A stretch of 56,468 nucleotides of DNA from a virus (IMGVR_UViG_3300032050_000168:1-56468); one strand, 5' to 3'. Positions 542-49,261 are shown, counted from the first letter of the stretch. The notes: generated by a model from the sequence alone, not told the origin. Made by a program: numbers and translations.

Positions 542-765
542 TATTCCTCAACGACTGTCTCGGATGGACGAACATACATCATATTTTCCATGTCTAACTT
601 CCATCCGGCATCTGGATTTAACTTCAGTATCTGCATCATTTGTGCATTGGCGTCTTCTATTTCTTGCATTAACTGTCGTTGATAGGTTTTTAACAACGTA
701 TTATTTGCTTTAATTAAGTTCTGTAAGGCTAACGGAACGTCTAATGTAACTTGTTTAGTAGTCAT
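541..765 (-). CDS. small hypothetical protein (helical, short C-terminal hairpin)
   Basis: 74 aa ORF in the operon, translationally coupled to the helicase gene. Confidence 0.6.
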   Translation of the reverse strand: MTTKQVTLDVPLALQNLIKANNTLLKTYQRQLMQEIEDANAQMMQILKLNPDAGWKLDMENMMYVRPSETVVEE

Positions 766-774
766 AAATAAATT

Positions 775-3708
775 TTAATACATATTATCAAAAGGTGTTG
801 CAAATGTTGAGTAACTAGTTACCGTACCAATGGTGGGCATATAGGAACCTGGATACGCAGTGATTGCAGGCAATGGTGCTGTATTTAAATTAAATGCAAA
901 TGTGTAGTCCTGTGCAAGCCACGATGTTAATTGTGAAAATACGAAAGTCGTGTTACGGGTTGCTGAACCACCATCCCATTTGTGAGTTGTTACTTTGTGT
1001 GCACTACTCGATGATCCTGGGTATGTGTTATATAATGGTAACGCCATGTGCCAGTGAGTTGATGTTCTATGTGCAAGTGGTCCGGTAAAAATATTATATA
1101 ATGCATCCGAAGTGTTTAATCCGCCAGATGGTTCTATTCTGAGTCGTTTACCACCTAGTACCGTTCCATTTAAATCCAGAGTAAAAAATTGCATCGCATT
1201 ATATCGTCGGTCGAAATTGTCCAGTATAACGTTAAACGAAACTTCTATGACACCATTTACGTATTGTAACGATTGTTGTCGTCTTCCTTGCAAGGCTGCT
1301 CCGCCAGACGAGACATATCCAGCTTCGTCAGAGGCGTGATAAGTACTTATAAGGGTTGCCCAAGCACATTGCATTCCTCCTTCAAACGCATATGCACCTG
1401 CTGGATTATAAAACTTTGCTACTATAACTCCACTATCCTGATCAGCATTGCCATAGAGTGACTCACCTCGTCTGAATACTACATACAACTCCGATCCTAT
1501 CATTTTCGTAACTCGGGGTATCCATCCTGTCATCGTTGGATTATACCAACAAGTATGAAAATTTCCGTATCCTAGATAATAATCTCCAAATGCGGGATAG
1601 AAGGTATTAACACCATCCCCCAACATGCCAGCCACCCATAATGTAGCAGGTGCATATACGCCCACTCCGTATGGACGAAACGGCTGGTTATTAGAATTTT
1701 TTCCGAACATAACAACTGCACCACTATTATTTCCAGGATAATCAGATATTTCACTTGTACCCGATCCCCAGTTAATATACCCCCACCCATATCTAACACC
1801 ACCTTGACTCCAATTTGTGAGTCCTGTACGGAACGTATTTTGTCCATCATACAATATTGAAGTTGGATTTGCGGGAGTTCCTCTTGACATAAATGTTTCT
1901 ACGTCTGCATACACTACTCCACTTGTTACATTATAATTAAATCGGAAGGTTACATAAGACAGTCCAACTGTATCATACACTTTTATATGACCAAATATTT
2001 CTGTTCCTGCAATCGGAATCATCGACGTGGATTCATTCTTCTCGTGGTCAAATGTTTGTTCGTTTATAAAAAAGCCTGTAGGTAAGGTTATTCTTGTAGT
2101 TCTCACCAATGTACCATTTGACGTATTCTGTACGACTAATTCAAGAATACTTGCATATTCAATGTAATACGTTGCCGTCACCATATAGTTTCCAACAACG
2201 CAGGTACCTAGTACACGGGAATCTAGATCTCCTTGTGTTCCAAACCCTTTCCCCCAATTTGCAAACACAATTTCCGATGGCGACGGTGTAATTGATGGGG
2301 TAACTGTACGTGTTGGTGTAACTGTAGGAGTAACAGACGGCGTTGTAGTAACCGATGGCGTAGTAGTTGGTGTAAAACTTGGAGTGACCGGTGGGGTAAC
2401 AGACGGCGTTGTAGTAACCGATGGCGTAGTAGTTGGTGTAAAACTTGGAGTGACCGGAGGTGTGATAGATGGTGTGGTTGTAACGGACGGCGTAGTAGTT
2501 GGTGTAAAACTTGGAGTGACCTGTGGGGTAACAGATGGCGTTGTGGTAACGGATGGTGTATTAGTTGGTGTAAATGTAGGAGTAACAGACGGCGTTGGTG
2601 TAAATGTTGGCGTATTAGTTGGTGTAAATGTAGGAGTGACGGTTGGCGTTGGTGTAACGGTACTGGTAATTGTGTATGTAGGGGTTACCGTTGGCGTAGT
2701 CGTGGTAGTTGGTGTATTGGTAGGGGTTGCTGACGGACACTGCTGTACCGTTGGACTAATAATACCCACGGATGATGTATATGCGTAAGGATATAATACA
2801 CTTCCGCTTTCAAAAAATCCAGTAAATCCGGTAGTACAATTACTCTGTAAATAAATTTTACCAAAGCAATCTTTATAAAACTTGGTATTGTTTGTTGGGG
2901 TGTTACAATAATCGGTAAGCGTACCACCGCTACTTTTATATAATCCTGGAACTTCTACGCACGGACACGGTGTTACTGTTGGCGATCTAGTAATCGTCGG
3001 GGTTGTCGTTGGTGTAAATGTCGGCGTAATTGTTGGAGTTGGTGTAAATGTTGGCGTACGAGTAAGGGTGGGAGTAACCGTAGAGGTTGGTGTTACCGTA
3101 AACGTTGGGGTAAATGTTGGCGTAAAGGTTGGTGTTACCGTAAACGTTGGGGTAAGCGTTGGGGTTACTGTTGGAGTTACCGTTGGAGTCGGTGTGTTTG
3201 TGGGTGTATTTGTAGACGTAAATGTCGGAGTTGTCGTTGTGGTTGGGGTAAACGTTGGGGTAAATGTTGGCGTAAAGGTTGGTGTTACCGTAAACGTTGG
3301 GGTAAATGTTGGCGTAAAGGTTGGTGTTACCGTAAACGTTGGGGTAAGCGTTGGGGTAAACGTTGGGGTTACTGTGCTAGATGGTGTGGTGGTTTTAGTA
3401 TGTGTTGGCGTCAACGTAGTTGTTGGCGTAACGGTTGGACTGAATGTACTCGTAGGTGTTGGTGTTGGACTTGGCCCTTTATAACACAGTACATAATTTC
3501 TAACCTTCGGTGCCAGTGATGCGGTATCGGCAAGAAAATATCCCGGTGGACATCCAGTTGCAGCTAATCCTGGAGTTCCGGGGGGAGCGTAATTGGCAAC
3601 TAATGCATGTGCGGCAGTTCCAGCAGGAGCAATTACCTCATGTGCGTAACTGGATGACTCTACATATGAACTTGTTGATGGTATACCAAAAGGAAAAAAT
3701 GTACTCAC
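775..3708 (-). CDS. mucin-like Thr/Pro-repeat protein with a Cys-rich insert and a C-terminal probable beta-propeller domain; likely virion-associated
   Basis: 977 aa with two long (TPT[F/V/N])n tracts separated by a Cys-containing domain, an aromatic beta-rich C-terminal half, and an SD-like GGAG upstream of the GTG start. Confidence 0.7.
2330..2530. repeat. 66-bp tandem repeat ([22 protein letters not shown] units)
   Basis: gtaacagacggcgttgtagtaaccgatggcgtagtagttggtgtaaaacttggagtgaccgg occurs at about 2330 and 2396, followed by a more degenerate third copy. Confidence 0.85.
3084..3357. repeat. 42-bp tandem units and an 82-bp exact duplication within the Thr/Pro tract
   Basis: 3084-3165 is identical to 3276-3357; the unit is ggttggtgttaccgtaaacgttggggtaaatgttggcgtaaa. 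Confidence 0.85.
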
Positions 3709-3724
3709 ACAAAACTCCGATTAT

Positions 3725-3934
3725 TTACACATTAATAATTTGTACTTTAGTTGTATCGTATCCGTCGCCGATAATTTTATATGGAGGGCCTTGCGGTCCT
3801 ATACTTTCACTTGCAAATTGAGCAAATGATGCAGTAATTGGCTTACCACCGGGCGAAGTAGTCATAGTCAATCGTGAACCTATTGAATAAGAACCACTTA
3901 TATAAGTACCACCGGGAGTAAATTCAATCGTCAT
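3725..3934 (-). CDS. small hypothetical protein with a TASFA motif and a GPQGPP triplet
   Basis: 69 aa ORF in the operon; shares the TASFA motif with the fibre proteins. Confidence 0.6.
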   Translation of the reverse strand: MTIEFTPGGTYISGSYSIGSRLTMTTSPGGKPITASFAQFASESIGPQGPPYKIIGDGYDTTKVQIINV

Positions 3935-3945
3935 ATTTTATACTC

Positions 3946-4185
3946 TTAATCTGAAAAGTCGCACAATTCTACACGGGTTGCTGAGCCAGAAATTTGATAA
4001 TATTGTTCTGTACTAAGAAGACAGATTCCTATTCCTCGTGATCCTGATTGAGGATATAGTACTCGGTCTGCTTTTGATGCTGTAACTACGTTATTTATGA
4101 AACTTGCGGATATTGCATATGATGATGTTATTGCAAATGATGAAGTGTACAGTGAACCGGATGCATACGGGTATACATTAATCAT
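3946..4185 (-). CDS. small hypothetical protein with (T/S)(A/S)S(F/Y)A repeats
   Basis: 79 aa; contains YTSSFAITSSYAISASF. Confidence 0.6.
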   Translation of the reverse strand: MINVYPYASGSLYTSSFAITSSYAISASFINNVVTASKADRVLYPQSGSRGIGICLLSTEQYYQISGSATRVELCDFSD

Positions 4186-4186
4186 A

Positions 4187-5047
4187 TCAACTCTCTAGAG
4201 AAAATACGTGCAACGATACTTTAATATTGGTAGTACCGGGAGTTGATGCAAGATTTTCAAGTATATAATACATTTCATTTTCTCCCATGATTGCCGCTTC
4301 ATTACTTCTAATTGCAACTAGATCGGATCCGATTGTATCTAAATTTGAACCTACAATTTTTGGAACAAAATAGGTAGTTTGACTACCAGATAATATTGCA
4401 TCAATAATTAATCCAGTACTTCCCAAAGATTCTGTGGCAAATGATCTGGAAATTTCTGTAGTATTTGAAAACACATTTGATCTACTATATAGACGTATTC
4501 TTGCTCGGGTTCCCGACCCCGATAGAGATGCACTCACCAATAAATAGGTTCGTGGAACTGTAGGATCACTTAAAGTTCCCGTTACAAATGTTCCCGTGGT
4601 TACCAACGATTGTATATAGGGGACTGTTATCCGATTGATGGTATTTACCGTAGAATCTTCCAATAAATATCTATTAAATACTATTGTTGGAGTACTTGTA
4701 TTATTATCTATTCTATAATAAGTTAATTTATTACTGGCGGTGGCAACCACGCCGTATGTAGCTGGATCAATTTTATATGTTCCTGCTACACTCATACTAA
4801 AATCGCCGATTAGTGCAATATTGTTTGGTACAAAATTGGTGGTAAACGGTCTTATTTTTTCAGTAGCGTCATCCCTACTCTGTAAATTATCGTATAAACG
4901 CAATCTACATGGAATATTTGACTGTAAGGTTAGTAACATATACGCGGAACCTAATTCAATGGATCCTGAATTAGATGCGTTTGCTTGTAATGTTACGTTC
5001 TCTCTAATTAATGAAGCGCCATCCCTAATATGATCTGCTAATCCCAT
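4187..5047 (-). CDS. probable structural protein with an internal two-domain duplication
   Basis: Two related halves: YMLLT...CRLRLY....DATEKIRPFTT and YLLVS...ARIRLY....NTTEISRSFAT. AAGGA SD and the upstream promoter motif are present. Confidence 0.6.
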   Translation of the reverse strand: MGLADHIRDGASLIRENVTLQANASNSGSIELGSAYMLLTLQSNIPCRLRLYDNLQSRDDATEKIRPFTTNFVPNNIALIGDFSMSVAGTYKIDPATYGVVATASNKLTYYRIDNNTSTPTIVFNRYLLEDSTVNTINRITVPYIQSLVTTGTFVTGTLSDPTVPRTYLLVSASLSGSGTRARIRLYSRSNVFSNTTEISRSFATESLGSTGLIIDAILSGSQTTYFVPKIVGSNLDTIGSDLVAIRSNEAAIMGENEMYYILENLASTPGTTNIKVSLHVFSLES

Positions 5048-5071
5048 AATGTCCTTTAAAAAGTATACCTA

Positions 5072-5079
5072 TATAAATA
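5072..5079 (-). promoter_or_regulatory. putative late promoter motif TATTTATA
   Basis: Motif 25 nt upstream of the ATG at 5047; recurs at similar spacing before other late genes. Confidence 0.6.
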
Positions 5080-5089
5080 TTTTGTATGT

Positions 5090-7435
5090 TTAGTTTTCTC
5101 TACGTTCTTCTGCCGGATAAAACTCTACTCGGTCGTGGGTGATTGGACTTGCCACCAATATACCAGGATTAATATTCCCATTTAATGTTTCTTGAAAAAT
5201 GTGACTCATCCACGTTTGTTCATACGGAAATGCCCATCGTGTTTCTAAAAACATCTTTCTATTTCCTTCTTTACTAACAATTTGAGGCCAATTGCTATAG
5301 TATACTTCTCCTGTTGCATAAGCAACCCCGTCTAATACTTTTATATTGTAAAAACGTGTATATGGTGAATTTGGATCCAATCCTGTCTCTGGTAATTTAT
5401 CGTACGATGGCCACGTCTGTGTTCTGATTTCTTGCGGCACATTATACCACGCCCATTGCTTACTGTTATCCCCATAAAATTCTGAAAATGAGAATTTTAA
5501 GAAATCAAACTTTTCTTTGAGCATGATCTTTACAATTGAGGTATACAGATTAGGAACATATTGTGTCAATCCGCACTTACATAATTTATCGGCAGTGTCT
5601 TTGCCATTGACGTGCATATCGTCTTCAAAAAACATAGAAAAATCCGCGTCAGATTCATCAAAGTGTTCTGCAGCAAATTGTCGTCCACCGCACACACCCA
5701 AATTTTCTCTATGAATTTCTTCAAATCCATACATGGTACATAATTCATCATATTCTGGAAATAGTGTCGTGTCAATAGAATTGTTTATTAGTATCTTTCT
5801 ACTTAAGACGAACATATCAGGATCGTTCTGTTTTATTGATTCACACACTGATTTAAACTGATTCGGTGAATTGAATCCCAATACGTATAAATTTGTTTTT
5901 GCTGTTTTTGGTGTAATAACTCTATGAATGCTGTTGGTTAGTTCTTTTACATCTTTTAATTTTTCAAAAAATCTCCAAACTAATCCATCTTCCAGCAATT
6001 CATAACAATATATGAACTCCGGATATTGATGTGCCAGAATAGTAAATATACTTTCTTCTGTCCCCATCAATTGTTTTTGTAAAGTATCTGTCAATACTGC
6101 ATAATATAATCCATTAATTTTGTTGATAAGAGATTTTTTACCACCAAAAAATCCACCACGACACACATAGTTAACGTGGGTTACTTCACAATATTTTGTA
6201 ATTTCTTTTCTGTCAAATCCATGAATCTCGGTTCCATCCGTATATGGATATGACAAAAATAAAAATTGATTTAAGCTCTCCACATAAGTTGATAAATTAT
6301 TTAATACTTTGTCATGTGTAAAATATCCAGGATGTACAGTTGATGTAATTCCCGCATCAAGCCAAAAGAAATATTCCGTGTCAAACGGATTAAATATCGT
6401 GGCATTGTTTAACATAAACATCTTACTCATAACAACAGGATTGTAATACTCCAACGTTGCTTGCGGGGATTCTTTAAGCCAACTTGCTTGAGAATACCAA
6501 GATTCCGTTTTTCTTATCTGTTGTACCGAGTTAAAATGTTCAAACCAAAGTTTAAATTCTTTTAATTCTAATATCTTGACCATAGTATTACTACGTGATC
6601 TATGTTTCCAGATAAACTCTTCGTCTTCCGGTGCAACAAATATAATCATATTGACGGGAGTTTTCAATAGTTCTGCAAATTTTTCTTTGTAATGTTCGTA
6701 TGACCGTTTAAATGCGGCTGATATACTTTCCCTACCCAAATCCCATAACGCAGTAACTATCGTAACATTTTGAGGTATTTCCTCTGTAAATATTTCATCA
6801 ATCGTATGTAATGTAACTTGTTTATAAGTGTCAATTAATTTTTTATATGGAAATGCCAACTGCAATTTTTCAATTATAGTATCTTCAATTTGATCATAAA
6901 ATACAGGTGTATATTCGGTACGTTTAGTATTTTTTATAAAAACCCCATAATCATATCTAACGCACAATGGAATAAGTTTTTTATGTGTTCTTAAGAAGGA
7001 AGTTAATGTAAGTTTTGGTTGCAAATGAATTTCATGCACGTTTTCATTTACTGTACCCTGCGGTGCGTTAAATGGGACTGTAATAATCAATTCAGCCGAA
7101 GTATTTAGAAGTTTTTGTATAAGACTTCGTGAATCGTTTAAATTCAGATGCTCCAGTATATCTCCCAGAATAATAAAGTCATACTGGGAAAAATCTACCG
7201 AGGTGTGCATTACGTTTTCTATAAACACATTTTTATATTTTTCCCGTAAATTATACTGCTCTACGTAGGGAAAAAATACTTCCATTGCATCAATATTAGT
7301 AAACTGCGGGGATAGTAAATCTGCATAGGTACCACATCCCGCACCAATGTCTAATATTTTAACATCTGTATTGTTGGCCGATTTTGTTATGAACTCTAAA
7401 ATTTGTTGTTTAAAAATTGTAGTACTAAATGGCAT
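5090..7435 (-). CDS. fusion of class I SAM methyltransferase, HtrL/YibB-like glycosyltransferase and GT-A (GT2-like) domains
   Basis: ILDIGAGCG and GDILEHL (MTase); TIVTALWDLGRE, SKMFML..A...NPFDTEYFFWLDAG, GGFFGG, GTEESIF (HtrL-like); ENLGVCGGRQ...FFEDD (GT-A). Confidence 0.8.
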   Translation of the reverse strand: MPFSTTIFKQQILEFITKSANNTDVKILDIGAGCGTYADLLSPQFTNIDAMEVFFPYVEQYNLREKYKNVFIENVMHTSVDFSQYDFIILGDILEHLNLNDSRSLIQKLLNTSAELIITVPFNAPQGTVNENVHEIHLQPKLTLTSFLRTHKKLIPLCVRYDYGVFIKNTKRTEYTPVFYDQIEDTIIEKLQLAFPYKKLIDTYKQVTLHTIDEIFTEEIPQNVTIVTALWDLGRESISAAFKRSYEHYKEKFAELLKTPVNMIIFVAPEDEEFIWKHRSRSNTMVKILELKEFKLWFEHFNSVQQIRKTESWYSQASWLKESPQATLEYYNPVVMSKMFMLNNATIFNPFDTEYFFWLDAGITSTVHPGYFTHDKVLNNLSTYVESLNQFLFLSYPYTDGTEIHGFDRKEITKYCEVTHVNYVCRGGFFGGKKSLINKINGLYYAVLTDTLQKQLMGTEESIFTILAHQYPEFIYCYELLEDGLVWRFFEKLKDVKELTNSIHRVITPKTAKTNLYVLGFNSPNQFKSVCESIKQNDPDMFVLSRKILINNSIDTTLFPEYDELCTMYGFEEIHRENLGVCGGRQFAAEHFDESDADFSMFFEDDMHVNGKDTADKLCKCGLTQYVPNLYTSIVKIMLKEKFDFLKFSFSEFYGDNSKQWAWYNVPQEIRTQTWPSYDKLPETGLDPNSPYTRFYNIKVLDGVAYATGEVYYSNWPQIVSKEGNRKMFLETRWAFPYEQTWMSHIFQETLNGNINPGILVASPITHDRVEFYPAEERREN

Positions 7436-7485
7436 AAACTATTTTGTCCTGTAATAAACGTATGATTTAAATATTACTCCTGGTA

Positions 7486-10077
7486 CTACAAACCTCCCAT
7501 TTTTCTATGAAAATAGAAATCTTCCACATAAACCCCACTCAGTTCGGTGGATTCAAATACTTTAAATGCGTCACCTAACGTTGATAAAATGGGTTTACCG
7601 TCTACGTTAAACGACGTATTCAGTAACACACCAATGCCAGTTAGTTTTTTAAACTCGGTAATTAAATCATATAATTTCTGATTCTGTTCTCGTGTAACTG
7701 TTTGTACCCGCGCAGTTCCATCTACATGAACAATTGCAGGTATGATATTTTTATATTTTTCTTTTACTTTAGGACAAAAACTCATCCACCTGGATTCACC
7801 CTCCCATTCAAAATATTCTGACACATCTTCTAAACGAACTACAGGAGCAAATGGTCTGTACCATTCTCGGTGTTTTACTTTTAAATTCAATGTGTCTTTC
7901 ATATCGGACAGTAACGGACTACATAAAATACTACGATTACCTAACGCACGAGGACCGTGCTCCGACCGTCCGGTAATAAATCCAAGTATTTGACCCTGCA
8001 TAAGTAACGTAGCTAATTTATCTAACTCAATTGATTCTCCAAGATAACGTTCAACATATTCAGATAACCGATGTTTGTCAAGTAATTCTGGTCCTGCGTA
8101 TGTTACGTCAATTGAATCCGGTGGCATGATCATATTTGCCAGCATACCCACCGCTAACCCACAATCATTTGGATTTGGTCCAACAAACACGGGTCTATTA
8201 TATTTTTGGTTTATTTTTGTATTTAATACAATATTCAATCCACACCCACCCGTTATACAAATAGGAAGTTCTGTGTGAGATTGTATTTCCTCGTCCACGT
8301 ACTCAAAAAATAATTCTTCAAATACGTGCTGTGATGTAGCAGCTACATCATATGCAACTTGATCAATCAATCTATTCTGTATATCAAATGGTATAGAAAT
8401 TTCTTCAGATAAAATTTTAAAATGCTCTTCGTAATTCCCGCCAGAAATATTAGAAGTATATAATTTTTTAAATGCATTTACCCAATCTGTTCTTACATTA
8501 CCATATGATTGTAGTCCTAGAATTTTTCCAGCATATACCAAATTACCCAAACTTAGTGCATTTTCTTTTTTAATGTCGCCAAGATATTCACCAAATATCA
8601 TATATGGAAATCCCAAATCCAGTCTATGTTCTCGTAAAACAGTAAGTGGTTTTCCTCGTTCTGCTAGATAAATTTTAAAAAATCCATCATTACCGCCACC
8701 ATCAAACGAGATTACCAATGCTTTTTGAAATGGTGATTGATAAAATGTACCTGCCGCATGTGATTCGTGGTGCTTACACTCAACGTGAATTTTTGCAGGA
8801 AATCCTTCCCAATAGTTAACACTGCCGTGGTGTTCAATTGTTTCACAGTGTTGATGTAAACAATAACCGTATTCGGTGAAACCATATTTATTCTGAAAAT
8901 AGTCTACTATCAGTTTTGATAAGTTTTTTCTTGAATGTGCCACGTAATATTGCGTATAACCTGCGTTCTTTACATTCAAGAATCTTTCAATTTCCAACAC
9001 TTCCAAAATTTTTCCACCATATTCAACTGCAACTGATGCGTTATGGGAGCCATATACTGCTATATTTGGTAAATCAAATTTCTCATATACAAATGGTGCA
9101 GGTGACTTATACACAGGCACCAAATATTTTTCCACGTTAGTTAATCTTGACTCTTTTTCTTCTATTAAATTAAAAAATGATTTATAAAAAGACCGTGCTG
9201 AATTATCTGAGTGTAGAAAATAACATGGATCCGTTGGAACATCGTGATACCAAGTATCAAACGTATTTAAATAAAATAGTTCAGGATGAGTTGTATGTAC
9301 CACGGACATAATTCCTTCTTCCAACGGAACAACATCAGCATTCAATATAGTATCCACGAGTGCATAAAATTTTTCTGCAAACGTATGAATTACACTCGGT
9401 ACTCCTCCAAAAAAACCACCAATTAAACTTGCAGTTAATTCGGTTGGAGCTACTTCTTTAGTCCACTCAACAGGAAGTCGTATCACTTGAGTTGCATATC
9501 CAAATATTTTTGATTCACTGACAAGTAAGTCGTATAACTTATCACCCAAGTCTTCATTAAATTTTGCTGTACTTTTATTTGGATAATAGTTTTCCAAATC
9601 AAATCTTGCCAATTCAACACCACCCAATGTTTCTGGAAACAACGCATGGTGAAACAGTCCCGCATCAATCCATACTACAGGAGTTTCTTCTATTTGACGA
9701 TGTTTAATAGTATCCAGTAAAAACCATAACTTTGACAAGCACAGAATATGTAACCTATTATTATGTTTATATAATTCTGATGCGTCATTATTGAATAAAT
9801 TAACATATCGTTCTTTTAAAGAATAAACTTTTTGATAGTTTGGAAGATCTTCTAATTCCACGTGTCGTAATTCAAAATTTATTAAGTTATATTCTTGAAC
9901 GAATTTTGTTAATTCCGGTTCTTGAAATTTATCGTGATAAACCACAACTTTTTGCGTACCCAATCGTGAAATTGCATATAATGTTGGTTTATAATAAGAA
10001 AAATTCCATCCTCTACCGCCCATTATAGATAAAGGATTTGAGTAATATACTGCAGTAACTATTGTTGTATTATTCAT
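7486..10077 (-). CDS. HtrL-like glycosyltransferase domain fused to a NodU/CmcH/TobZ-family O-carbamoyltransferase
   Basis: N-terminal TIVTA, WIDAG, IGGFFGG, EE. C-terminal HHESHAA, DGGG, GGCGLN, PNDCGLAVG, GRSEHGPRALGNRS, KHREWYRPFAP, HVDGTARVQTV, LLNTSFN. Confidence 0.9.
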   Translation of the reverse strand: MNNTTIVTAVYYSNPLSIMGGRGWNFSYYKPTLYAISRLGTQKVVVYHDKFQEPELTKFVQEYNLINFELRHVELEDLPNYQKVYSLKERYVNLFNNDASELYKHNNRLHILCLSKLWFLLDTIKHRQIEETPVVWIDAGLFHHALFPETLGGVELARFDLENYYPNKSTAKFNEDLGDKLYDLLVSESKIFGYATQVIRLPVEWTKEVAPTELTASLIGGFFGGVPSVIHTFAEKFYALVDTILNADVVPLEEGIMSVVHTTHPELFYLNTFDTWYHDVPTDPCYFLHSDNSARSFYKSFFNLIEEKESRLTNVEKYLVPVYKSPAPFVYEKFDLPNIAVYGSHNASVAVEYGGKILEVLEIERFLNVKNAGYTQYYVAHSRKNLSKLIVDYFQNKYGFTEYGYCLHQHCETIEHHGSVNYWEGFPAKIHVECKHHESHAAGTFYQSPFQKALVISFDGGGNDGFFKIYLAERGKPLTVLREHRLDLGFPYMIFGEYLGDIKKENALSLGNLVYAGKILGLQSYGNVRTDWVNAFKKLYTSNISGGNYEEHFKILSEEISIPFDIQNRLIDQVAYDVAATSQHVFEELFFEYVDEEIQSHTELPICITGGCGLNIVLNTKINQKYNRPVFVGPNPNDCGLAVGMLANMIMPPDSIDVTYAGPELLDKHRLSEYVERYLGESIELDKLATLLMQGQILGFITGRSEHGPRALGNRSILCSPLLSDMKDTLNLKVKHREWYRPFAPVVRLEDVSEYFEWEGESRWMSFCPKVKEKYKNIIPAIVHVDGTARVQTVTREQNQKLYDLITEFKKLTGIGVLLNTSFNVDGKPILSTLGDAFKVFESTELSGVYVEDFYFHRKMGGL

Positions 10078-10107
10078 CTGAATCCCGTGGTGTGTTTGTA
10101 AGATAAC

Positions 10108-11031
10108 TTATTTTATAACTTCTTGAATTTTATTTAGTATGTTGTATTTTTCCAAAAATATATTTTTATTTTCTAGCATGTACGGGAACATTTCGTCATA
10201 CAATTTTTCTGCGTTGTTATTTATGTCTAATATAAGAGAACGCACGGCATCCAAGTCATCCAAGTCTGGCATCTGTATATATCCTCGGGAATCATAATAT
10301 TCCGCAATATTCGTACTTCCATAATAGATCGGAATTGTGTTAGTTAACAAATTATCTGTAAATTTTTCTGTGGTATAAAATGGTTCCGCTGTATTTTCTA
10401 TTCCTATAGAAAACCGATATGATTTAAGTGCAATGTATTTATTCCATGCTTCCCCTTTACATCTACCGGTGGCGGTCCATTGTTTACCGTATACATCAAC
10501 CGGTAAATCATTGTCTATAATTAGATTTGCCACGTTCATACGTTTACGATAAATGTGAGGTGCGTCAGAAGGAACCCACCACATATTATCCGGGGAGTTT
10601 GATACCACCATACTAATATTTTCTGTTTTGGACAAGTCCCACTGATTTATGTGTTCAAGTCCCCACTCAGAATCACCACCGCCACCATACAGCATATAAT
10701 TTGGACCTTCAATTACTTTCTCATTATCATGATCAAAAATATTACGGTTTTGAACGAATACCCAATCAGAATAATCAACCGCATTGCGATCTATATTATG
10801 TGACCACGACGGTTCCATTCCAAAAAATATGGTGTGTTGTTTATCGGTTTTAAGTACGTTGTCACCCAACCTACCGAATACTATTGCCCATTCATAAGAA
10901 TCGTCGGTAACAAATTCAAAATTTTCAAAATGGTACTCATTTAATTTTAATTGTGCTAATACTCGTCCAATAATACTAACAGAAGGTTGATCGTGTGTCC
11001 ACCAGCAAAAAATTCTAATTTTAGTTTTCAT
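10108..11031 (-). CDS. GT10-family (alpha-1,3/4-fucosyltransferase-like) glycosyltransferase
   Basis: K...LKSYRFSIGIENTAEPFYTTEKFTDNLLTNTIPIYYG matches the GT10 fucosyltransferase motif. Confidence 0.85.
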   Translation of the reverse strand: MKTKIRIFCWWTHDQPSVSIIGRVLAQLKLNEYHFENFEFVTDDSYEWAIVFGRLGDNVLKTDKQHTIFFGMEPSWSHNIDRNAVDYSDWVFVQNRNIFDHDNEKVIEGPNYMLYGGGGDSEWGLEHINQWDLSKTENISMVVSNSPDNMWWVPSDAPHIYRKRMNVANLIIDNDLPVDVYGKQWTATGRCKGEAWNKYIALKSYRFSIGIENTAEPFYTTEKFTDNLLTNTIPIYYGSTNIAEYYDSRGYIQMPDLDDLDAVRSLILDINNNAEKLYDEMFPYMLENKNIFLEKYNILNKIQEVIK

Positions 11032-11801
11032 AATTTATCTCTGTTTATTAAATAAAAATGTTCGTACGGATACTGCGGCAAATCTTCCATTACTTTGGTA
11101 TAAGGTTGTCCAAACATACCAACAATAGTAGAAGATTCAGTTTGTATATATTTTCCAGTTCCATGATTCCAAAATCCAATAAATTCTCTATTAAATCTTG
11201 AATATTTTCCAACGCCAGGTGTTATATTATCATCACGAACGTCGGATACAATATTATGAATTCCTGGTAAATAATACTCTGGGAATGCTTCATTATATTT
11301 GTCGATGTACCTATACGTTATGTCCCCGTCTTCTTCTCCAATACCCAGCAATCGTTCATCCAACCATCCTATATCAATCATTCCGTCCTTTGTATAACAT
11401 GCATGACTAAATGAACCATTGAATTTACACATTCGTGTGATGGACGAATTTATAGACTCAAACGTATCAAAAAAACTTTCATTTAAAATATCAACATCAT
11501 CGTTTAAACATAATAATAAATTAGTGGGTGAATGAATTACCAACGTATTGACTAATTTAGCGTATCCACGAAATGATGGGAAAAATATAGGATATACATT
11601 ATTTGTAGTTCCAATCAATTCCAATACCGATGTACGATACGTTTCATCAAATTCCGTATTATTTAGTCCATTTATTGCTACTAGTATAGGTATATTTTTC
11701 CTATATTCACGAATAGCTAATAATGTTTTCTTAAACATATCAAATCGTTTAGAAAACGTTGTAATACCAATACTATACGGCAAGATTGTTGTTTCTGACA
11801 T
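11028..11801 (-). CDS. GT-A fold (GT2-like) glycosyltransferase
   Basis: SIGITTF, LLCLNDDV (DxD-like), IGWLDERLLGIGEEDGD. Start moved to MSETT (11801) on the basis of an upstream AGAGAAG. Confidence 0.75.
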   Translation of the reverse strand: MSETTILPYSIGITTFSKRFDMFKKTLLAIREYRKNIPILVAINGLNNTEFDETYRTSVLELIGTTNNVYPIFFPSFRGYAKLVNTLVIHSPTNLLLCLNDDVDILNESFFDTFESINSSITRMCKFNGSFSHACYTKDGMIDIGWLDERLLGIGEEDGDITYRYIDKYNEAFPEYYLPGIHNIVSDVRDDNITPGVGKYSRFNREFIGFWNHGTGKYIQTESSTIVGMFGQPYTKVMEDLPQYPYEHFYLINRDKL

Positions 11802-12471
11802 ATTCTTCTCTATTAAAATATAAAATGTTTTCTCTGTCTTGAAAATGCGGTAGATGTAATGGCAACACACGATCCTCACTGACCCCGGTTCGTATGAATT
11901 TATAATTCCATCTATCCATCAAATGTCCATCTTCCCCTCCCCACGTAGTAAATTTTTCATCAAAAAATCCAATGTCTTTTATAGATTTGATTGATGTTAA
12001 ATGAAATCCACCGAATCCACCAACACATCCTTTTGTAAATACTAATGGATGTGTTCCGTGCGGATCAACTTGATCTAATGGTATATTTCCATCGTCAAGT
12101 TTTGCAAAATTAAAGAAAAACCCAATTTCATATGTTACGTTTGATGCGAGAGTGGCTAACGCATCCCATTGTGTCCGATGTATAAATACATCGCAGTCCA
12201 TCAAACAAATGTTATCTTCCTCTGGAAATGTATTTATTATTCCGTTAAGTTTTTCTGATCGTTTATATGTTCCAATTGGGTATGGAATATGTGTTGCGTC
12301 GTCAATTATTTTTTCTGGTGAATAGTCAAATATATTGGCAGTAGCGGGTACCGACTTACTGTTTAGATATCGTACCATATCCTTTAAATATGGCCACGTT
12401 AAGTGTACATTTCGTTCTCTGCTACTATTTTCTTGGCCATCTGTCCAAAAAGCCATGCAGAAATGTATCAT
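11773..12471 (-). CDS. GT-A glycosyltransferase with a GT7 (galactosyltransferase) C-terminal-like motif
   Basis: YKRSEKLN, LMDCDV (DxD), IGFFDEKFTTWGGEDG, HLPH. Confidence 0.75.
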   Translation of the reverse strand: MIHFCMAFWTDGQENSSRERNVHLTWPYLKDMVRYLNSKSVPATANIFDYSPEKIIDDATHIPYPIGTYKRSEKLNGIINTFPEEDNICLMDCDVFIHRTQWDALATLASNVTYEIGFFFNFAKLDDGNIPLDQVDPHGTHPLVFTKGCVGGFGGFHLTSIKSIKDIGFFDEKFTTWGGEDGHLMDRWNYKFIRTGVSEDRVLPLHLPHFQDRENILYFNREEYVRNNNLAV

Positions 12472-13391
12472 AACCTAATGGTTCCCGTTTCATAATGTTG
12501 AGTAAACCAAGAAATTGTTTGAGATAATCCGATTGGTAACTCTGTGTATTTTATAGGATATACTAGTTGGAGTTTACTCGTATCACTTGGTTTTCTTTCT
12601 TGTCCGTTATGTTGTGTACTATCTTCAAACACAATCTTTCCCGTGAAATTCATTTCCTTTGCAATTAGATGTACCACATCACGTATTTCGTACTGAGTCG
12701 GTGATGATACTACCAATGGTTCTACATCTTCATAATTAAATATTGCCCATGCAATAACTTTTGCTAAATCTTCGGCATAAATAAATTCACGATACACTTT
12801 TCCATTTCCCATCACATTTAATGGAGTATTATTTATTTTTGCCAAATAACATTTATGAATTAATGCAGGAATTACGTGAGCAGATTCTAAATTAAATTGA
12901 TCATATTTACCATATACATTTGTAGGTATTATGGTTGTCCATTTTTTATTATATTGTGTTTGATATGCCCGAGTTTGAACTTCTAACATTCTTTTTGCAT
13001 AAGCATATCCAAAATTTGAATCATGAGGTTCTCCATCGTGGATTTTATGTGGCTGTAATGGATACGTTGTTTTATCGGGAAATATGCAAGTTGACATCAT
13101 CCCTAGTAATCGGTTCACATTGTATTGATGAGCATATTGCAATACATACGTATTCATTATGACGTTTTGTTCGTAAAATCCTACGGGATCTCTACTATTA
13201 GCCATTACCCCACCAACCTTGGACGCTAAGTGAATAACATGTGTTGGATTGTATATAGAAAACATACTTTCTACATCAGTTTTATTTGTTAAATTAAATT
13301 GAGTAGACGATATGTAGTTGGCAGAGGGTAAATATTTCTGTAAGTTTCTACCCACTAAACCCGACCCCCCAGTTACCAATATTTTGTTCAT
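12468..13391 (-). CDS. fcl: GDP-L-fucose synthase (GDP-4-keto-6-deoxymannose epimerase/reductase)
   Basis: ILVTGGSGLVG, HLASKVGG, STCIFP, N.GYAYAKR, PTNVYG.YDQF....AHVIPALI, REFIYAEDLA. Confidence 0.9.
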   Translation of the reverse strand: MNKILVTGGSGLVGRNLQKYLPSANYISSTQFNLTNKTDVESMFSIYNPTHVIHLASKVGGVMANSRDPVGFYEQNVIMNTYVLQYAHQYNVNRLLGMMSTCIFPDKTTYPLQPHKIHDGEPHDSNFGYAYAKRMLEVQTRAYQTQYNKKWTTIIPTNVYGKYDQFNLESAHVIPALIHKCYLAKINNTPLNVMGNGKVYREFIYAEDLAKVIAWAIFNYEDVEPLVVSSPTQYEIRDVVHLIAKEMNFTGKIVFEDSTQHNGQERKPSDTSKLQLVYPIKYTELPIGLSQTISWFTQHYETGTIRL

Positions 13392-14629
13392 AGTTCTCCT
13401 GTCAACCGTTCACCCCATCCATGTTCTCTTGAGTGTGGCCACACAATCCATCGTTTTGGCTGGTCTAATGTGTGAAATATTCTCCAGAGTTTACAATATC
13501 CGGCGGAGTCGTTTTTCATCATCAAAATTTCTTGTTCATTGGCATCTTCTCTATGAATTTCTACCCCTTCTTTATTTTCAAATGCCACTGCCCATACATC
13601 ATAATCATTGTACGGTACCCATGATATTGGTATATCAATACAATGTTTGAATACACGTAGATATGGTTCTCCTGGAGGATTAGGAGGTTCTTTGTGATCT
13701 AACGTATATTGTTGCACAGATCGTGTATCAAATTTAATACCTGCATAATTTTCATAATCTTCAAGCGTTCTAATAGTTCCAAATCCAAAATCACCGAAAT
13801 CTTCTGCCGGATCATGTTCTCCGTCAATGCGGAGTAATCGTCTATTTCTTGCCAAAGAAGCATTATCCCAACGTCCCCATTCTGCTATATCATCCCACGA
13901 CTTTCGTGGACGATGTTCCCGAGAATATTCATGATATACTACTGGTTTATGAGGAGAAAACAAATCATAACCCCATGTATAGGCTCGGGCAGCAATAGAA
14001 ATTTCTTCGCCATGAAATAAATAATTGGGATCGTGAGGAACTTCTTTACAGAATTGTCCAAGGGTAAATCCAAAGTGTGCTGAATAGAATCGACTCGGAT
14101 ATGGAAGTGTTCTATTTTGCCAATCTGGAATTACGGATGGAATAAAAAATACTGCTCCCTGTGGCGTAAATCTGTCAAATGTCAAAAACCACGGATCTGT
14201 TGCTCTACCAGTAGGATCATTGTGTGGTTCGTAACTTGATACATATGCAGTCAGTAATGGCTTTTTGTGTCCTACTTTTTGTAAATCCTTTACCATTTTA
14301 ATTAGTGTATCATCCCAATCTTTTGCAAATCGGTGATGTGAATCTAACTGTAACGTGTAAGCTTCATCAGTCCAATGCTTTTGAATTTGGTATCGTGCCC
14401 AACACGTTCCTCTAGTTTGTAAATGAGGTATATCAAGAATTTTAAAACGAGCATCGTTTTTAAATTCATCTAACGTATCCCAATCATCCTCGGTTGCATG
14501 TTGCCACGCAATACAAAAACGTAAATTTTTGGGTTTCTTTGCATTTGCAATACAACTACGAATCGTTGGTAATAATTCTGGATCTCGGTATGCGGCAATT
14601 TGAATAAAAATGTTTTGATTCTTTTTCAT
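13388..14629 (-). CDS. GT60-type polypeptide GlcNAc transferase (Skp1 Gnt1 / trypanosome OGNT-like), copy 2
   Basis: IFIQIAAYRDPEL, GTCWAR, YTLQLDSHHRF..DWD, FHGEEISIAARAYTWGYDLF.P. Confidence 0.85.
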   Translation of the reverse strand: MKKNQNIFIQIAAYRDPELLPTIRSCIANAKKPKNLRFCIAWQHATEDDWDTLDEFKNDARFKILDIPHLQTRGTCWARYQIQKHWTDEAYTLQLDSHHRFAKDWDDTLIKMVKDLQKVGHKKPLLTAYVSSYEPHNDPTGRATDPWFLTFDRFTPQGAVFFIPSVIPDWQNRTLPYPSRFYSAHFGFTLGQFCKEVPHDPNYLFHGEEISIAARAYTWGYDLFSPHKPVVYHEYSREHRPRKSWDDIAEWGRWDNASLARNRRLLRIDGEHDPAEDFGDFGFGTIRTLEDYENYAGIKFDTRSVQQYTLDHKEPPNPPGEPYLRVFKHCIDIPISWVPYNDYDVWAVAFENKEGVEIHREDANEQEILMMKNDSAGYCKLWRIFHTLDQPKRWIVWPHSREHGWGERLTGEL

Positions 14630-15903
14630 ATGTTAAACTCTCCAGATAATCTAGTCATCCATCCTTTACTCAAACTATGAGGCCATACTATCCATTTTGC
14701 TGGTAGGTCGTCGTGATAAAAATTTCTCCAGATGTGTGAAAATTTATCTTGTTCATACGGAACACTTAAAATTCTCTGAATTTCCTGTTCATATGCGTCT
14801 TCTCTATGAATTTCTACCCCTTCTTTATTTTCAAATGCAATTACCCAAACATTATAATCATTTTCTGTAAATTCTGGTCTATGTACGTCTATACACATTC
14901 TATGGTATTTTGCCAATCCCTGTGCATGATATACTTCATCTATTGACACGGGAGGTAATTTCTTGGTAATCGTATCTCTATGTACTTGTCGTGTACTAAA
15001 CTTTAATCCCGCATACAATTCATATTGTTCTAATGATCTAACTTGTTTTTTTACTAATTTATTTGATGGTGAGATTACATCAATACCTAGTAAAGTTCTA
15101 TTATGTTTGTGGGATGTAGTATCTAATTCTTTCCAATCAGTATGGTCATCCCAATGTTTCTTTTTACCTTCTCGTGTATATTCATGCCAAATAACTGGTC
15201 TATGTGGAGCAAATAAATCATACCCCGCCATATACGCTCGTACAGACAGATTGATCTCTTCTCCATGAAAATAGTACGTGGGGTCATATTCCACTTCTTT
15301 ACAAAATTTCCCATCGGCAAAAATAAAATGACCCGAAATAAATCGTGACGGCATTGGACGATCTAGTTCTTTAAAATTATCTATGGTGTGCGGTAAAAAG
15401 TGTACGGGCCCTTCAGGAGCAAACCGGTCAAATTCCATAATCCACGGTATCATCATTCTACCAGCGGGATCGTTTTTTGGATCAAAACTGGGAAGATAGG
15501 AACTTAATAGTGGTTTTGGGCAATCTTTTGAACGAAGACTTTCCAGCATCTCAATAACTGTAGTATCCCATCCCTTACTAAACCTGTGATGGGAATCTAA
15601 CTGCATTGTATACGTTTCTTTATTATAGGCTTTATTTAGTTGATGTCTCGCCCAACACGGACCCTTCGCATCACGATAATCAATATCAATAATATCAAAA
15701 CGAGAATCATCTTTAAACTCGTCTAAGTTATCCCACTCTTCGTATGGGGAATGTTGCCAGGCAATACCAAATCGTAATCTATCAGGATGATCAGCATTTG
15801 CTAAACAATCCCGTAATGTATTTAATAATTCAGGATCTCGGTATGCGGCAATTTGTATATAAATCGTTGGATTAGAAACTTTTTTCTTTTTTCTTGGAGC
15901 CAT
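14626..15903 (-). CDS. GT60-type polypeptide GlcNAc transferase, copy 1
   Basis: IYIQIAAYRDPEL, GPCWAR, YTMQLDSHHRF..GWD, FHGEEINLSVRAYMAGYDLF.P; GAGGG SD. Confidence 0.85.
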   Translation of the reverse strand: MAPRKKKKVSNPTIYIQIAAYRDPELLNTLRDCLANADHPDRLRFGIAWQHSPYEEWDNLDEFKDDSRFDIIDIDYRDAKGPCWARHQLNKAYNKETYTMQLDSHHRFSKGWDTTVIEMLESLRSKDCPKPLLSSYLPSFDPKNDPAGRMMIPWIMEFDRFAPEGPVHFLPHTIDNFKELDRPMPSRFISGHFIFADGKFCKEVEYDPTYYFHGEEINLSVRAYMAGYDLFAPHRPVIWHEYTREGKKKHWDDHTDWKELDTTSHKHNRTLLGIDVISPSNKLVKKQVRSLEQYELYAGLKFSTRQVHRDTITKKLPPVSIDEVYHAQGLAKYHRMCIDVHRPEFTENDYNVWVIAFENKEGVEIHREDAYEQEIQRILSVPYEQDKFSHIWRNFYHDDLPAKWIVWPHSLSKGWMTRLSGEFNI

Positions 15904-15969
15904 ATAACCCTCGTGAGGAAACCTTTAACTTACCAATATACATATTATTCACTTTGTTGTCAAGTGGGT

Positions 15970-16179
15970 TTAATACGGTGTTACCGTCCACTGAGTTCCA
16001 TCCCAATACTTGACGGGTTTTATTACCCATGCAGCACCCGTCCACACTTTCATGGGTTTTGCCGTCCATGCAGCACCTGTCCAGACTTTAATTTGTCCAG
16101 TGTTTCCTGCCGCCGACGATAGTGCAACGTCAAAGGTACCGGCTCCACCGTCTCGTAGTACAATTGTATCAAACGCCAT
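15970..16179 (-). CDS. small fibre-associated protein with three K(V/Y)W(T/D)GxxW repeats
   Basis: IKVWTGAAW / MKVWTGAAW / VKYWDGTQW; translationally coupled to the upstream gene. Confidence 0.7.
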   Translation of the reverse strand: MAFDTIVLRDGGAGTFDVALSSAAGNTGQIKVWTGAAWTAKPMKVWTGAAWVIKPVKYWDGTQWTVTPY

Positions 16180-48981: not shown

Positions 48982-49260
48982 TTATTTCTCCACATATTGT
49001 TTCAACTTTGTATAATAATCAGGAACCTCTCGGAGATGTGCGGCGGAAATCATCGCAGTTTTGATTAAACTCCCGTCCGTCACATCTTGGTGTTCCAGTT
49101 CTACATTCATACCCAAAACAAATTGGTTGAAGTCAAAATCATATCCCATATAATCATAGATACGTTTTGCTTCATCCGTACTAATATAAGTATCCCCACT
49201 CACATACGGAGTGTCTTTTTTGGTATCGGCCTCGGTCAATAAATCACGAAGTAAAATCAT
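48982..49260 (-). CDS. DUF5661-like small protein, copy 2
   Basis: MILLRDLLTEA; GMNVELEH.......AMI.AAHLRE.PDYYTKL. Confidence 0.75.
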   Translation of the reverse strand: MILLRDLLTEADTKKDTPYVSGDTYISTDEAKRIYDYMGYDFDFNQFVLGMNVELEHQDVTDGSLIKTAMISAAHLREVPDYYTKLKQYVEK

Positions 49261-49261
49261 G

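Follow-up and report, generated by a model that had tools for sequence, protein, structure and literature searches.

Phage-encoded GT60-type enzymes and Thr-Pro tracts: a candidate protein O-glycosylation system in a large T4-like phage

Introduction

The GT60 family of glycosyltransferases (GTs), as described in PMC6939170, includes Gnt1, which places alpha-linked N-acetylglucosamine (GlcNAc) on a hydroxyproline of Skp1, and the Trypanosoma cruzi polypeptide alpha-GlcNAc-transferase, which, according to PMC3769586, starts mucin O-glycans on Thr. Here we describe eight contiguous minus-strand genes at positions 5090-15903 of a viral DNA fragment of 56,468 nucleotides (IMGVR_UViG_3300032050_000168:1-56468; this whole stretch is referred to below as the window), two of which encode GT60-type enzymes, together with a nearby gene for a 977-amino acid (aa) protein that carries two long Thr-Pro (TP) tracts. 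We propose that the block probably encodes a cytoplasmic, GT60-initiated protein O-glycosylation system whose preferred acceptors would be the Thr-Pro (TxT) tracts of fibre-like or structural phage proteins, here the 977-aa protein. Because GT60 and Thr-Pro tracts co-occur across many phages, it is probable that these phages sugar-coat their own fibre-like proteins.

The phage enzymes belong to the same Pfam/CAZy family as the T. cruzi enzyme (PMC6939170), and the T. cruzi system, as described in PMC3769586, resembles the one proposed here both in its long Thr-rich, Pro-containing mucin-like acceptor and in the elongation of GlcNAc-Thr by further transferases. The Skp1 pathway of Dictyostelium and Toxoplasma, in which a cytoplasmic GT60 initiator is followed by the bifunctional two-domain enzyme PgtA and by fucose (PMC6939170), mirrors the combination of a GT60 with a tandem GT-A pair in the phage. 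It differs from the phage system in that a single site rather than hundreds would be modified, in that PgtA joins a GT74 to a GT2 domain rather than an HtrL-like to a GT-A domain, and in that Gnt1 requires hydroxyproline made by PhyA; no prolyl hydroxylase (PF13640) was found in the window or in any of five near-complete GT60-positive phage genomes, which makes Thr a likelier acceptor than hydroxyproline. The T. cruzi GT60 works in the eukaryotic secretory pathway, whereas the phage enzymes lack a membrane anchor and must work in the cytoplasm of the bacterium.

Viruses that glycosylate their own structural proteins by means of enzymes they encode are already known. Such glycosylation is cited for chloroviruses in PMC5852040, and among tailed phages glycosylation of the phage's own particle has so far been documented, as cited in PMC12619734, for mycobacteriophages, whose own GTs modify their own structural proteins (Freeman et al. 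2023, cited in PMC12619734 and PMC12691614), as is likewise proposed here. The GT cluster of the window adjoins fibre and fibre-like genes on the same strand, an arrangement of the mycobacteriophage type. The mycobacteriophage acceptors are the C-termini of capsid and tail-tube proteins, whereas the capsid and tube proteins of the window have no such extension, and separate mucin-like proteins and a GT60 initiator are proposed instead. The same logic as that proposed here has been described for the spore protein BclA3 (SgtA), where a soluble N-acetylhexosamine initiator modifies extended repeats rich in Ser/Thr ahead of export or assembly and is followed by several elongating GTs. Serine-rich repeat adhesins (GtfA/GtfB) follow the same logic of cytoplasmic repeat-protein glycosylation. 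Both systems use enzyme families other than those of the phage cluster, and we know of no phage or injection-machine context for either. A GT60 system aimed at mucin-like Thr-Pro tracts, with a counterpart acting on VgrG, did not appear in those parts of the literature that we searched: no paper there tied GT60 to phages or to VgrG, and one sponge-virome preprint contains both 'GT60' and 'phage'.

Results

The enzyme cluster

The eight genes lie between the tail-fibre genes and the gene for the 977-aa protein (Table 1). The original prediction, made from the DNA sequence, had assigned to them two GT60-type enzymes, a GDP-L-fucose synthase (Fcl), GT7-like, GT2-like, and GT10 enzymes, an HtrL-like domain fused to a carbamoyltransferase, and a methyltransferase-HtrL-GT fusion. 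Searches of Pfam and NCBIfam, fold comparison, and an Atlas feature search bear out all of these calls, those of the Fcl, GT7, GT2, and first HtrL domains being weak. Both GT60 proteins score far above the cut-off of PF11397, and the match covers positions 2-45 and 97-350 of the 352 positions of the model. GT60b is the ortholog of the single GT60 found in most related phages, has 43% identity to ORF334 of phage XacN1, and is the proposed initiating polypeptide GlcNAc-transferase; GT60a is an extra paralog of this sub-clade, with orthologs only in the related loci L007-L012, L011, L386, and L387. The motif D96-S97-H98-H99 (DSHH) is invariant in 20 of 20 aligned phage GT60 sequences, both window paralogs included, and would presumably correspond to the metal/nucleotide motif of the DxH type in GT-A enzymes. 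Sequence searches of the PDB, conducted with GT60 alone and with a 20-sequence profile, returned no significant match; weak matches to fatty-acid-binding proteins (E of at least 0.04) were disregarded.

The best NCBIfam match of the reductase encoded next to GT60b is Fcl (7.8e-57, model positions 2-301 of 307), with 193 bits against an equivalog cut-off of 500. For the GT2-like enzyme, a Pfam search gave no match even at E up to 10, and the protein probably starts at residue 27, near base 11801. In the fusion of an HtrL-like domain and a carbamoyltransferase, both carbamoyltransferase domains are present (Carbam_trans_N, 4.2e-25, and Carbam_trans_C, 2.3e-62, together spanning residues 434-857), the protein matches NodU at 3.5e-58, which is under the equivalog cut-off, and phrog_1601 at 2e-121, and its N-terminal 340 aa match HtrL_YibB weakly (1.2e-3 and 6.9e-5 in separate scans). 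The two halves of this fusion are separate open reading frames (ORFs) in other phages, XacN1 included.

The fusion at the downstream end of the cluster carries, behind its methyltransferase domain, a region (residues 220-781) for which an AlphaFold2 (AF2) model was built from 12 sequences, 11 of them homologs, and reached a predicted local distance difference test (pLDDT) score of 83. A Foldseek search with this model returned 472 PDB matches at E of 0.001 or lower, the top ranks of which are two-domain GTs; among them are LH3 (8e-12), LARGE1 (1e-9), K4CP, PmHS2, ColGalT1, and Mimivirus R699. The best of these matches (LARGE1, K4CP, PmHS2, and LH3/ColGalT1) share only 9-12% identity with the phage protein, and whole-chain template modelling (TM) scores to these tandem GT-A enzymes are 0.2-0.3 owing to differences in how the domains are arranged. 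The C-terminal half of the phage protein contains an invariant EDD motif. Overall, residues 220-781 are predicted to form a bifunctional tandem GT-A enzyme, an assignment confirmed by the modelled fold. Of the enzymes matched, LH3 and ColGalT1 glycosylate hydroxylysines of proteins, and the mucin-like region of dystroglycan is where LARGE1 assembles a repeating disaccharide. The enzymes of the cluster are soluble: none of the nine proteins of 775-15903 has a transmembrane-like segment (maximum KD19 1.29).

Table 1. Features of the window that belong to, or lie beside, the proposed glycosylation block
Feature	Position	Strand	Basis
977-aa mucin-like protein, proposed acceptor	775-3708	-	translation
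Thr-Pro-Ser tract 2 of the 977-aa protein, residues ~316-483	2260-2763	-	68 T, 39 P, 18 S of 168 residues
Thr-Pro tract 1 of the 977-aa protein, residues ~72-254	2947-3495	-	85 T + 40 P of 183 residues
69-aa ORF	3725-3934	-	with the 79-aa ORF, within the 478 bases that separate the 286-aa gene from the TP gene
79-aa ORF, a free-standing paralog of the TP protein's N-terminal domain	3946-4185	-	ORF list
286-aa protein, possibly fibre-like	4187-5047	-	conserved neighbour of the TP protein (L019, L386, L387)
S-adenosylmethionine (SAM) methyltransferase (residues 18-121) + tandem GT-A/GT-A (220-781)	5090-7435	-	Methyltransf_23; HtrL_YibB 223-474, 1.1e-18
HtrL-like domain (residues 1-340) + NodU/CmcH-type O-carbamoyltransferase (342-857) fusion	7486-10077	-	Pfam, NCBIfam, PHROG
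GT10 fucosyltransferase-like	10108-11031	-	Glyco_transf_10 1.1e-12, 48.4 bits vs 23.9, model positions 9-136 of 182
GT2-like glycosyltransferase	11028-11879	-	Atlas feature search 0.99 to viral GT2 clusters, sole support
Small GT-A glycosyltransferase, GT7-like	11773-12471	-	Glyco_transf_7C 5.4e-5, 23.2 vs cut-off 23
Short-chain dehydrogenase/reductase (SDR)-type epimerase/reductase, most like GDP-L-fucose synthase (Fcl)	12468-13391	-	Pfam Epimerase 3.2e-47, GDP_Man_Dehyd
GT60b	13388-14629	-	413 aa; PF11397 2.5e-71, 241 bits vs cut-off 21
GT60a	14626-15903	-	425 aa; PF11397 'GlcNAc' 2.1e-69, 235 bits vs cut-off 21; phrog_24687 1.2e-149
Sigma-70-like site	15935-15963	-	TTGACA-17-TATATT, 11/12; in the 275-base gap ahead of GT60a

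The Thr-Pro protein

Translation of the 977-aa protein confirmed the presence of the two long Thr/Pro tracts that had been predicted. The protein consists of an N-terminal domain (residues 1-75), tract 1, and a small module that contains Cys, followed by tract 2 and by a C-terminal orphan domain of ~500 aa, and it has neither a signal peptide nor a transmembrane segment. The DNA of tract 1 is made of imperfect tandem repeats with periods of 12-54 bases, and that of tract 2 of 66-base repeats (3.7 copies, 88% matches). The N-terminal domain is conserved, being common to the TP proteins of the related loci L019, L386, and L387, and it also occurs on its own in the 79-aa ORF, whose counterparts in L386 and L387 align with the N-termini of the TP proteins; such stand-alone copies suggest a shared attachment module. 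For the C-terminal domain, a word-based homolog search gave no match, and an exhaustive search of 1.84 billion representatives recovered the domain itself and one relative at 31% identity. An AF2 model of the C-terminal 508 aa, made without an alignment, had a pLDDT of 34.6, too low for use.

GT60 and Thr-Pro tracts in phages

The genomic test that accompanied the original prediction was whether GT60 genes co-occur with (TPT)n proteins across related phages. We defined a TP-rich ORF by a T+P fraction of at least 0.6 over 60 aa and a neighbourhood as 10 kilobases (kb), and the 45 GT60 loci obtained from IMG/VR (45-78% identity) were dereplicated to 27 groups at 90% GT60 identity. In 13 of the 27 groups a TP-rich ORF lies within 10 kb of GT60; in all 13 it lies upstream and on the same strand, and in 8 it is within 1.5 kb. 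The tracts near GT60 range from ~100 to ~2000 residues and part small Cys-rich or orphan modules, in the manner of mucin-like 'beads on a string'.

The association was also approached from the tracts. A scan of IMG/VR for the codon pattern of (TPTx)3TPT gave at least 137 stretches; after removal of 27 contigs shorter than 20 kb and of 18 further loci on contigs already sampled, 92 contigs were left, of which 84 were searched. For the control, contigs matching an arbitrary 14-mer were collected (at least 115 stretches, 74 contigs shorter than 20 kb dropped, 40 searched). Both samples consist of the matches listed and are not random draws, many of the contigs are fragments, and all counts from these two samples given here and below are to be read as counts among the matches listed. 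PF11397 was found in 26 of 84 tract contigs (15/47 and 11/37) compared with 0 of 40 controls (Fisher p = 1e-5), one control contig having a sub-threshold match. The contrast held for contigs of at least 90 kb (16/24 versus 0/9, p = 9e-4), for contigs of 20-90 kb (10/60 versus 0/31, p = 0.014), and in records at least 90% complete (6/17 versus 0/12). In 14 of the 26 tract contigs with GT60, no more than 8 kb separated the sampled tract from GT60 (coordinates compared by hand).

A third comparison was made within the clade defined by the window's capsid protein, using contigs of at least 21 kb (33 of 80 fetched loci, 32 of them searched, plus the window). GT60 is present in 5 of the 32 contigs and in the window, and these six GT60-positive records have 79, 32, 64, 3, 3, and 0 tract matches. 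Tracts were also found in 5 of the 27 GT60-negative contigs, namely G003, G032, G004 (14 matches), G015 (1), and G021 (1); those of G003 and G032 lie at the contig end and have the same sequence as the tracts of the GT60-positive contigs G002 and G001. None of the nine GT60-negative contigs of at least 39 kb (up to 99 kb) has a tract. Both of the 100%-complete GT60 genomes have tracts (168 and 237 matches), as do XacN1 (154) and RAS14 (6). Overall, the co-occurrence test is strongly positive in viral contigs, in gene order, in XacN1, and in the bacterial genomes described below.

Two tract-bearing records have features of their own. In L024:2539-5400, a 953-aa TP-tract protein encoded 4.6 kb upstream of GT60 has a zinc-protease-like HEIAH motif in its C-terminal part and is possibly a virion-borne enzyme on a glycosylated stalk. 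In the tract-bearing viral contig G075, a GT2 match (C1:21311-21709) has four in-frame TGA codons inside, which could reflect an alternative genetic code or a broken gene.

Conserved core of the GT60 loci and the cultured relative XacN1

Relatives of GT60 are abundant in metagenomic proteins, where 5032 of 6157 candidates matched at E of 0.001 or lower on contigs of up to 264 kb. In GenBank, GT60 occurs in 4 of 50,697 phage records, those of the jumbo phages XacN1 (of Xanthomonas), Xoo-sp13, CM1, and RAS14 (the last two of Stenotrophomonas); in XacN1 and RAS14, GT60 is directly followed by carbamoyltransferase, HtrL-like, and tandem GT-A genes whose products have 39-45% identity to the window proteins. 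Among the 27 IMG/VR groups, the tandem GT-A is present in 17 and the HtrL-like gene in 12, compared with GT10 in 5, GT2-like and GT7-like genes in 3 each, Fcl and carbamoyltransferase in 1 each, and two GT60 copies in 5. These counts indicate a conserved core of GT60 and the tandem GT-A, the remainder being lineage-specific decoration. Gene order is also retained: L386 and L387 keep the series GT60a, GT60b, further genes, tandem GT-A, 286-aa protein, small ORF, and TP protein, and in L019, GT60 comes directly after the 286-aa protein and a TP protein whose N-terminal domain is the same. In the clade relatives G012 and G014 (the contigs of L008 and L010), there are four PF11397-like genes, arranged as two pairs separated by ~18 kb (at ~52.7-55 kb and 71.6-74.5 kb); a 933-aa ORF contains one of these genes.

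The module of XacN1 (ORF334 with ORF333-330) resembles that of the window in its GT60 (43% identity), carbamoyltransferase (45%), HtrL-like protein, and tandem GT-A (41%). The 154 tract matches of XacN1 fall in at least 10 ORFs, among them ORF174, ORF180, ORF234, ORF236, ORF237, ORF350, ORF369, ORF370, ORF372, and ORF384, of which ORF369, ORF370, and ORF372 lie just downstream of the tail sheath genes. XacN1 virions contain 'at least two glycoproteins', which their authors tentatively ascribed to phage GTs (PMC5852040). The main text of that paper names two GTs only, does not class ORF334 as GT60, draws no link to Thr-Pro tracts, and does not name the tract-bearing ORFs (PMC5852040). Unlike the phage of the window, XacN1 is a Rak2-like jumbo phage of another lineage, and its module lies between replication and baseplate genes.

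Possible bacterial counterparts

GT60 relatives with 37-57% identity were found in 229 stretches of a species-genome collection, and 78 loci were fetched. The carriers include Gemmatimonadota, Bacteroidota, Verrucomicrobiota, and Burkholderiales, and some contigs from metagenome-assembled genomes may be phage. In the Burkholderiales loci L410, L416, L419, L426, and L459, all five tested, the TP ORF situated 4-6 kb from GT60 encodes a VgrG spike. These ORFs, for example L419:16625-18973 on the minus strand, have Phage_GPD, Phage_base_V, and Gp5_trimer_C domains and a C-terminal (PT)n tract, and one or two GT60 genes are nearby. A TssF and an RHS-repeat protein in L419, the sole locus whose neighbours were scanned, identify a type VI secretion system (T6SS) cluster there. 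The Burkholderiales loci may thus be a bacterial counterpart of the phage system, in which T6SS spikes would be glycosylated. Muzzle domains of the crAss type are present in the TP proteins of L400 and L428. Wherever an acceptor candidate can be named (VgrG, muzzle), it is therefore part of a tail-like machine built in the cytoplasm.

The TxT pattern is noisy in whole bacterial genomes, since a backwards control scores similarly in GC-rich ones, and the comparison was therefore confined to individual (TP)n sites. There is one true (TP)n tract in an 8-megabase (Mb) genome and there are two in a 7.2-Mb genome, and the VgrG tract is among them in each. In Jiulongibacter and Arcticibacterium, GT60, carbamoyltransferase, and tandem GT-A form a chromosomal operon (L394:8953-15157 and L430:8651-14477); beside it a small TP-rich protein is divergently transcribed, with an N-terminal RR motif and a hydrophobic stretch that give it a Tat- or anchor-like look.

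Discussion

Late in infection, the soluble GT60 enzymes would transfer GlcNAc from host UDP-GlcNAc to the hydroxyls of the tract Thr residues, and the tandem GT-A enzyme would then add the next two sugars or a repeating disaccharide. The GT7-like, GT2-like, and GT10 enzymes would add lineage-specific branches, GT10 using GDP-fucose finished by the Fcl-like reductase, and the carbamoyltransferase and methyltransferase domains would cap the sugars. The outcome may be a stiff, protease-resistant bottle-brush spacer that displays the fast-evolving C-terminal domain. The GlcNAc initiation and the fucose, carbamoyl, and methyl groups in this scheme are read from family names, and the donors, linkage, step order, and biological role given here are those that we consider the most plausible.

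Several findings weigh against this proposal. GT2 (PF00535) is likewise enriched in tract contigs (16/47 versus 3/40 controls); phages with tracts are thus generally GT-rich, the contrast being sharpest for GT60. The contigs do not each represent a separate lineage: G076 and G098 evidently belong together, and the contrast within the capsid clade may reflect a single gain or loss. Tracts are present in 19 of 44 GT60-bearing records (many of them fragments), and in the bacterial set, for which there is no matched control, a TP-rich ORF accompanies 21 of 78 GT60 loci. Sixteen TP proteins of related phage loci have no structural domain recognised by Pfam or PHROG, their sole matches being to the low-complexity families phrog_15511 and phrog_38559 (unknown function) and one InlB B-repeat. 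The assignments of the Fcl and GT7 enzymes are weak, and no GDP-mannose dehydratase (Gmd) was found in the window. Both the glycosylation of the 977-aa protein and its place in the virion are inferred on indirect grounds. The original prediction is partly supported: its domain assignments and its co-occurrence with tracts hold, and the cluster contains no membrane protein, flippase, polymerase, or DNA-base-modifying enzyme. The glycocalyx that it envisaged, for shielding, adhesion, or protease resistance, would be a conjectural role, its fibre substrates are not supported, and the 14 of 27 GT60 groups that have no TP ORF within 10 kb count against its generality.

GT clusters in large aquatic phages are usually taken to remodel a surface glycan of the host (lipopolysaccharide (LPS) or lipooligosaccharide (LOS), capsule, or exopolysaccharide), for example to block superinfection or change adsorption, and the cyanomyovirus paper PMC12801897 takes its 13 GTs as agents of host cell-wall modification. 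That the present cluster does so is unlikely in our view. The domain content lends itself to such a role: HtrL_YibB proteins are, as described in PMC4172580, known only from LOS/LPS loci, a point that also counts against a protein acceptor, and, judging by the family descriptions, pathways for polysaccharides and LPS typically employ enzymes of the GT10, GT2, Fcl, and NodU types. The G+C content of the enzyme block (4000-16000) is 33-36%, compared with 38-47% in the structural genes and flanks and 40-44% in the TP gene, which is consistent with a separately acquired accessory module and would equally suit an auxiliary one. However, no initiating phosphoglycosyltransferase, flippase/transporter, or polymerase is among the Pfam families of the cluster, none of its products is a membrane protein, and an action on host glycans leaves both the link of GT60 to tracts (26/84 among the matches listed versus 0/40) and the upstream placement of the tracts (13/13) unexplained. 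The GT60 activities described in PMC6939170 and PMC3769586, moreover, are all on polypeptide acceptors.

Equally improbable for the window is that the enzymes glycosylate virion proteins other than tracts, such as capsid, tail tube, or Ser/Thr-rich fibres, the link to tracts arising from a shared fibre module and ancestry. The mycobacteriophage glycans on capsid and tail-tube C-termini provide the precedent (Freeman et al. 2023, as cited in PMC12619734), and the 14 of 27 GT60 groups without a nearby tract point the same way. In particular, L042-L051 (genomes of ~60 kb, contigs up to 84% complete) have no tract at all and must therefore have other GT60 acceptors; their GT60 is surrounded by giant tail proteins, of which one has a C-domain of the crAss muzzle type and one a short PT linker only. 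In L015, the gene directly ahead of GT60 encodes a tract-free Phage_base_V spike protein. Glycosylation of other virion proteins is possible, and for tract-less lineages it must hold. In the window itself, the capsid protein (41015-42589, 524 aa) and the tube protein (34882-35370, 162 aa) have no Thr/Pro-rich extension (TP60 of 0.20 and 0.15). The ~18 kb upstream of the cluster do include fibre-type genes, as had been predicted, but their S+T content is 17-29%, compared with 8-19% in head and tail core proteins, which is moderate and ordinary for fibres, and nothing of their own marks them as substrates. The GT60-negative relatives in the capsid clade, too, have fibre modules and yet are tract-free in all nine contigs of at least 39 kb, and the association of GT60 with tracts recurs in bacteria in different settings (VgrG and Cytophagales chromosomal operons).

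It is very unlikely that the cluster hypermodifies phage DNA against restriction by placing sugars, carbamoylated or methylated, on 5-hydroxymethyl-pyrimidines. There are phage enzymes of the GT-A and GT-B types that assemble disaccharides and oligosaccharides on DNA, as described in 10.1101/2023.12.21.572611. The GT60 module adjoins DNA polymerase genes in XacN1 and L036, which also weighs against the main proposal, and the window is 26% of the genome, so that base-hydroxymethylating enzymes could be elsewhere. On the other side, no thymidylate-synthase-like, 5mYOX/TET, or C5-methyltransferase domain was found in the scanned ORFs of the window, and such pathways are usually clustered (10.1101/2023.12.21.572611); neither GT60 nor carbamoyl occurs in the text of that source. 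The methyltransferase is fused to glycosyltransferase domains, and DNA as the acceptor leaves the tract association unexplained.

That the enzymes serve in host takeover, their targets being host proteins or small molecules, with the Thr-Pro proteins as plain flexible linkers, has very little probability, for although PT linkers are widespread without known glycosylation, 58 of the 84 tract contigs among the matches listed are without GT60, and NodU-type carbamoyltransferases by family description also use small molecules, many of those 58 contigs are fragments, gene order and the 14/26 proximity among the matches listed favour a functional link, and XacN1 virions contain glycoproteins (PMC5852040).

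Returning to Thr-Pro tracts as the acceptors, a broader and distinctly more tentative suggestion, which we do not hold to be the likelier case, is that GT60 represents a widespread, hitherto undescribed prokaryotic 'mucin-type' O-glycosylation that operates in the cytoplasm, on Thr-Pro linkers belonging to proteins which the cell assembles internally and which are later exposed on its outside, the eukaryotic Skp1 and trypanosome GT60 pathways being offshoots or parallels. Candidate acceptors would then be phage fibres, crAss-type muzzle proteins, Burkholderiales T6SS VgrG spikes, and the small anchored TP proteins of Cytophagales, and the candidate core would be GT60 and the tandem GT-A elongase, often with a carbamoyltransferase, with varying decorations.

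The GT clusters of large aquatic phages are usually dismissed as host-surface or DNA modification. The pairing of GT60 with Thr-Pro tracts, by contrast, is a specific and testable enzyme-substrate proposal for an abundant family that has a cultured model, XacN1. If true, it would account for the very long Thr-Pro tracts in many environmental phage proteins and would predict glycan-coated fibres, affecting adsorption, particle stability, grazing, and antibody recognition. It would also extend to T6SS spikes and would make soluble enzymes of the bacterial cytoplasm available for making mucin-like glycoproteins.

Genomic setting and neighbouring genes

The window is a fragment from IMG/VR with an estimated completeness of 26%, which implies a whole genome of roughly 200 kb or more, and the minus strand is the coding strand of all of its real genes. 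PHROG and Pfam scans identified a large terminase, a T4-type portal, a prohead protease, a major capsid protein, a tail sheath, a tail tube, and several fibre-type proteins, and the source is a large, uncultured, distant T4-like myovirus. The capsid protein shares 55% identity with its counterpart in Flavobacterium phage vB_FspM_immuto and 51% with the one in Microcystis phage Mel-JY01, and has 550 relatives in IMG/VR. In transcription order, the fibre genes (34425 to 16179, with tail-fibre-type matches in Pfam and PHROG) are followed by a 275-base gap, the eight tightly packed enzyme genes, the 286-aa protein, two small ORFs, and the 977-aa protein.

The 286-aa protein, placed between the enzymes and the TP protein, is not an enzyme. 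Its reading as a prolyl hydroxylase found no support from Pfam, PDB, or structural-likeness searches. It has no family match (Pfam to E of 10, NCBIfam), a PDB sequence search gave nothing usable, as was also the case for a 283-aa protein, and a search for related loci recovered 2 only. An Atlas comparison showed weak structural likeness to phage collagen and gp9/10-N-like proteins (TM scores of 0.38-0.39). The predicted complex of the 286-aa protein with the N-terminal domain of the TP protein scored 0.01 against a mark of 0.32, a value that speaks neither way.

The sigma-70-like site in the gap ahead of GT60a is one of three 11/12 matches and has the top score within 1-17000; because such sites overall are not above shuffles (65 versus 69.9 +/- 9.2), it is a lead only, hinting that the enzymes may form a transcription unit of their own. 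At the other end, an ORF at 2-541 (minus strand) runs off the contig end and resembles ExoX in a C-terminal motif (PF20600, 1.4e-7). A long ORF occupies the matching place after the TP gene of L387, which indicates that the structural and glycosylation block ends there. Three further small genes lie between the terminase and portal genes: two encode DUF5661 proteins (48982-49290 and 50175-50609, minus strand), and one (52537-52899) encodes a DUF5856 protein with the PHROG label 'starvation-inducible regulator'.

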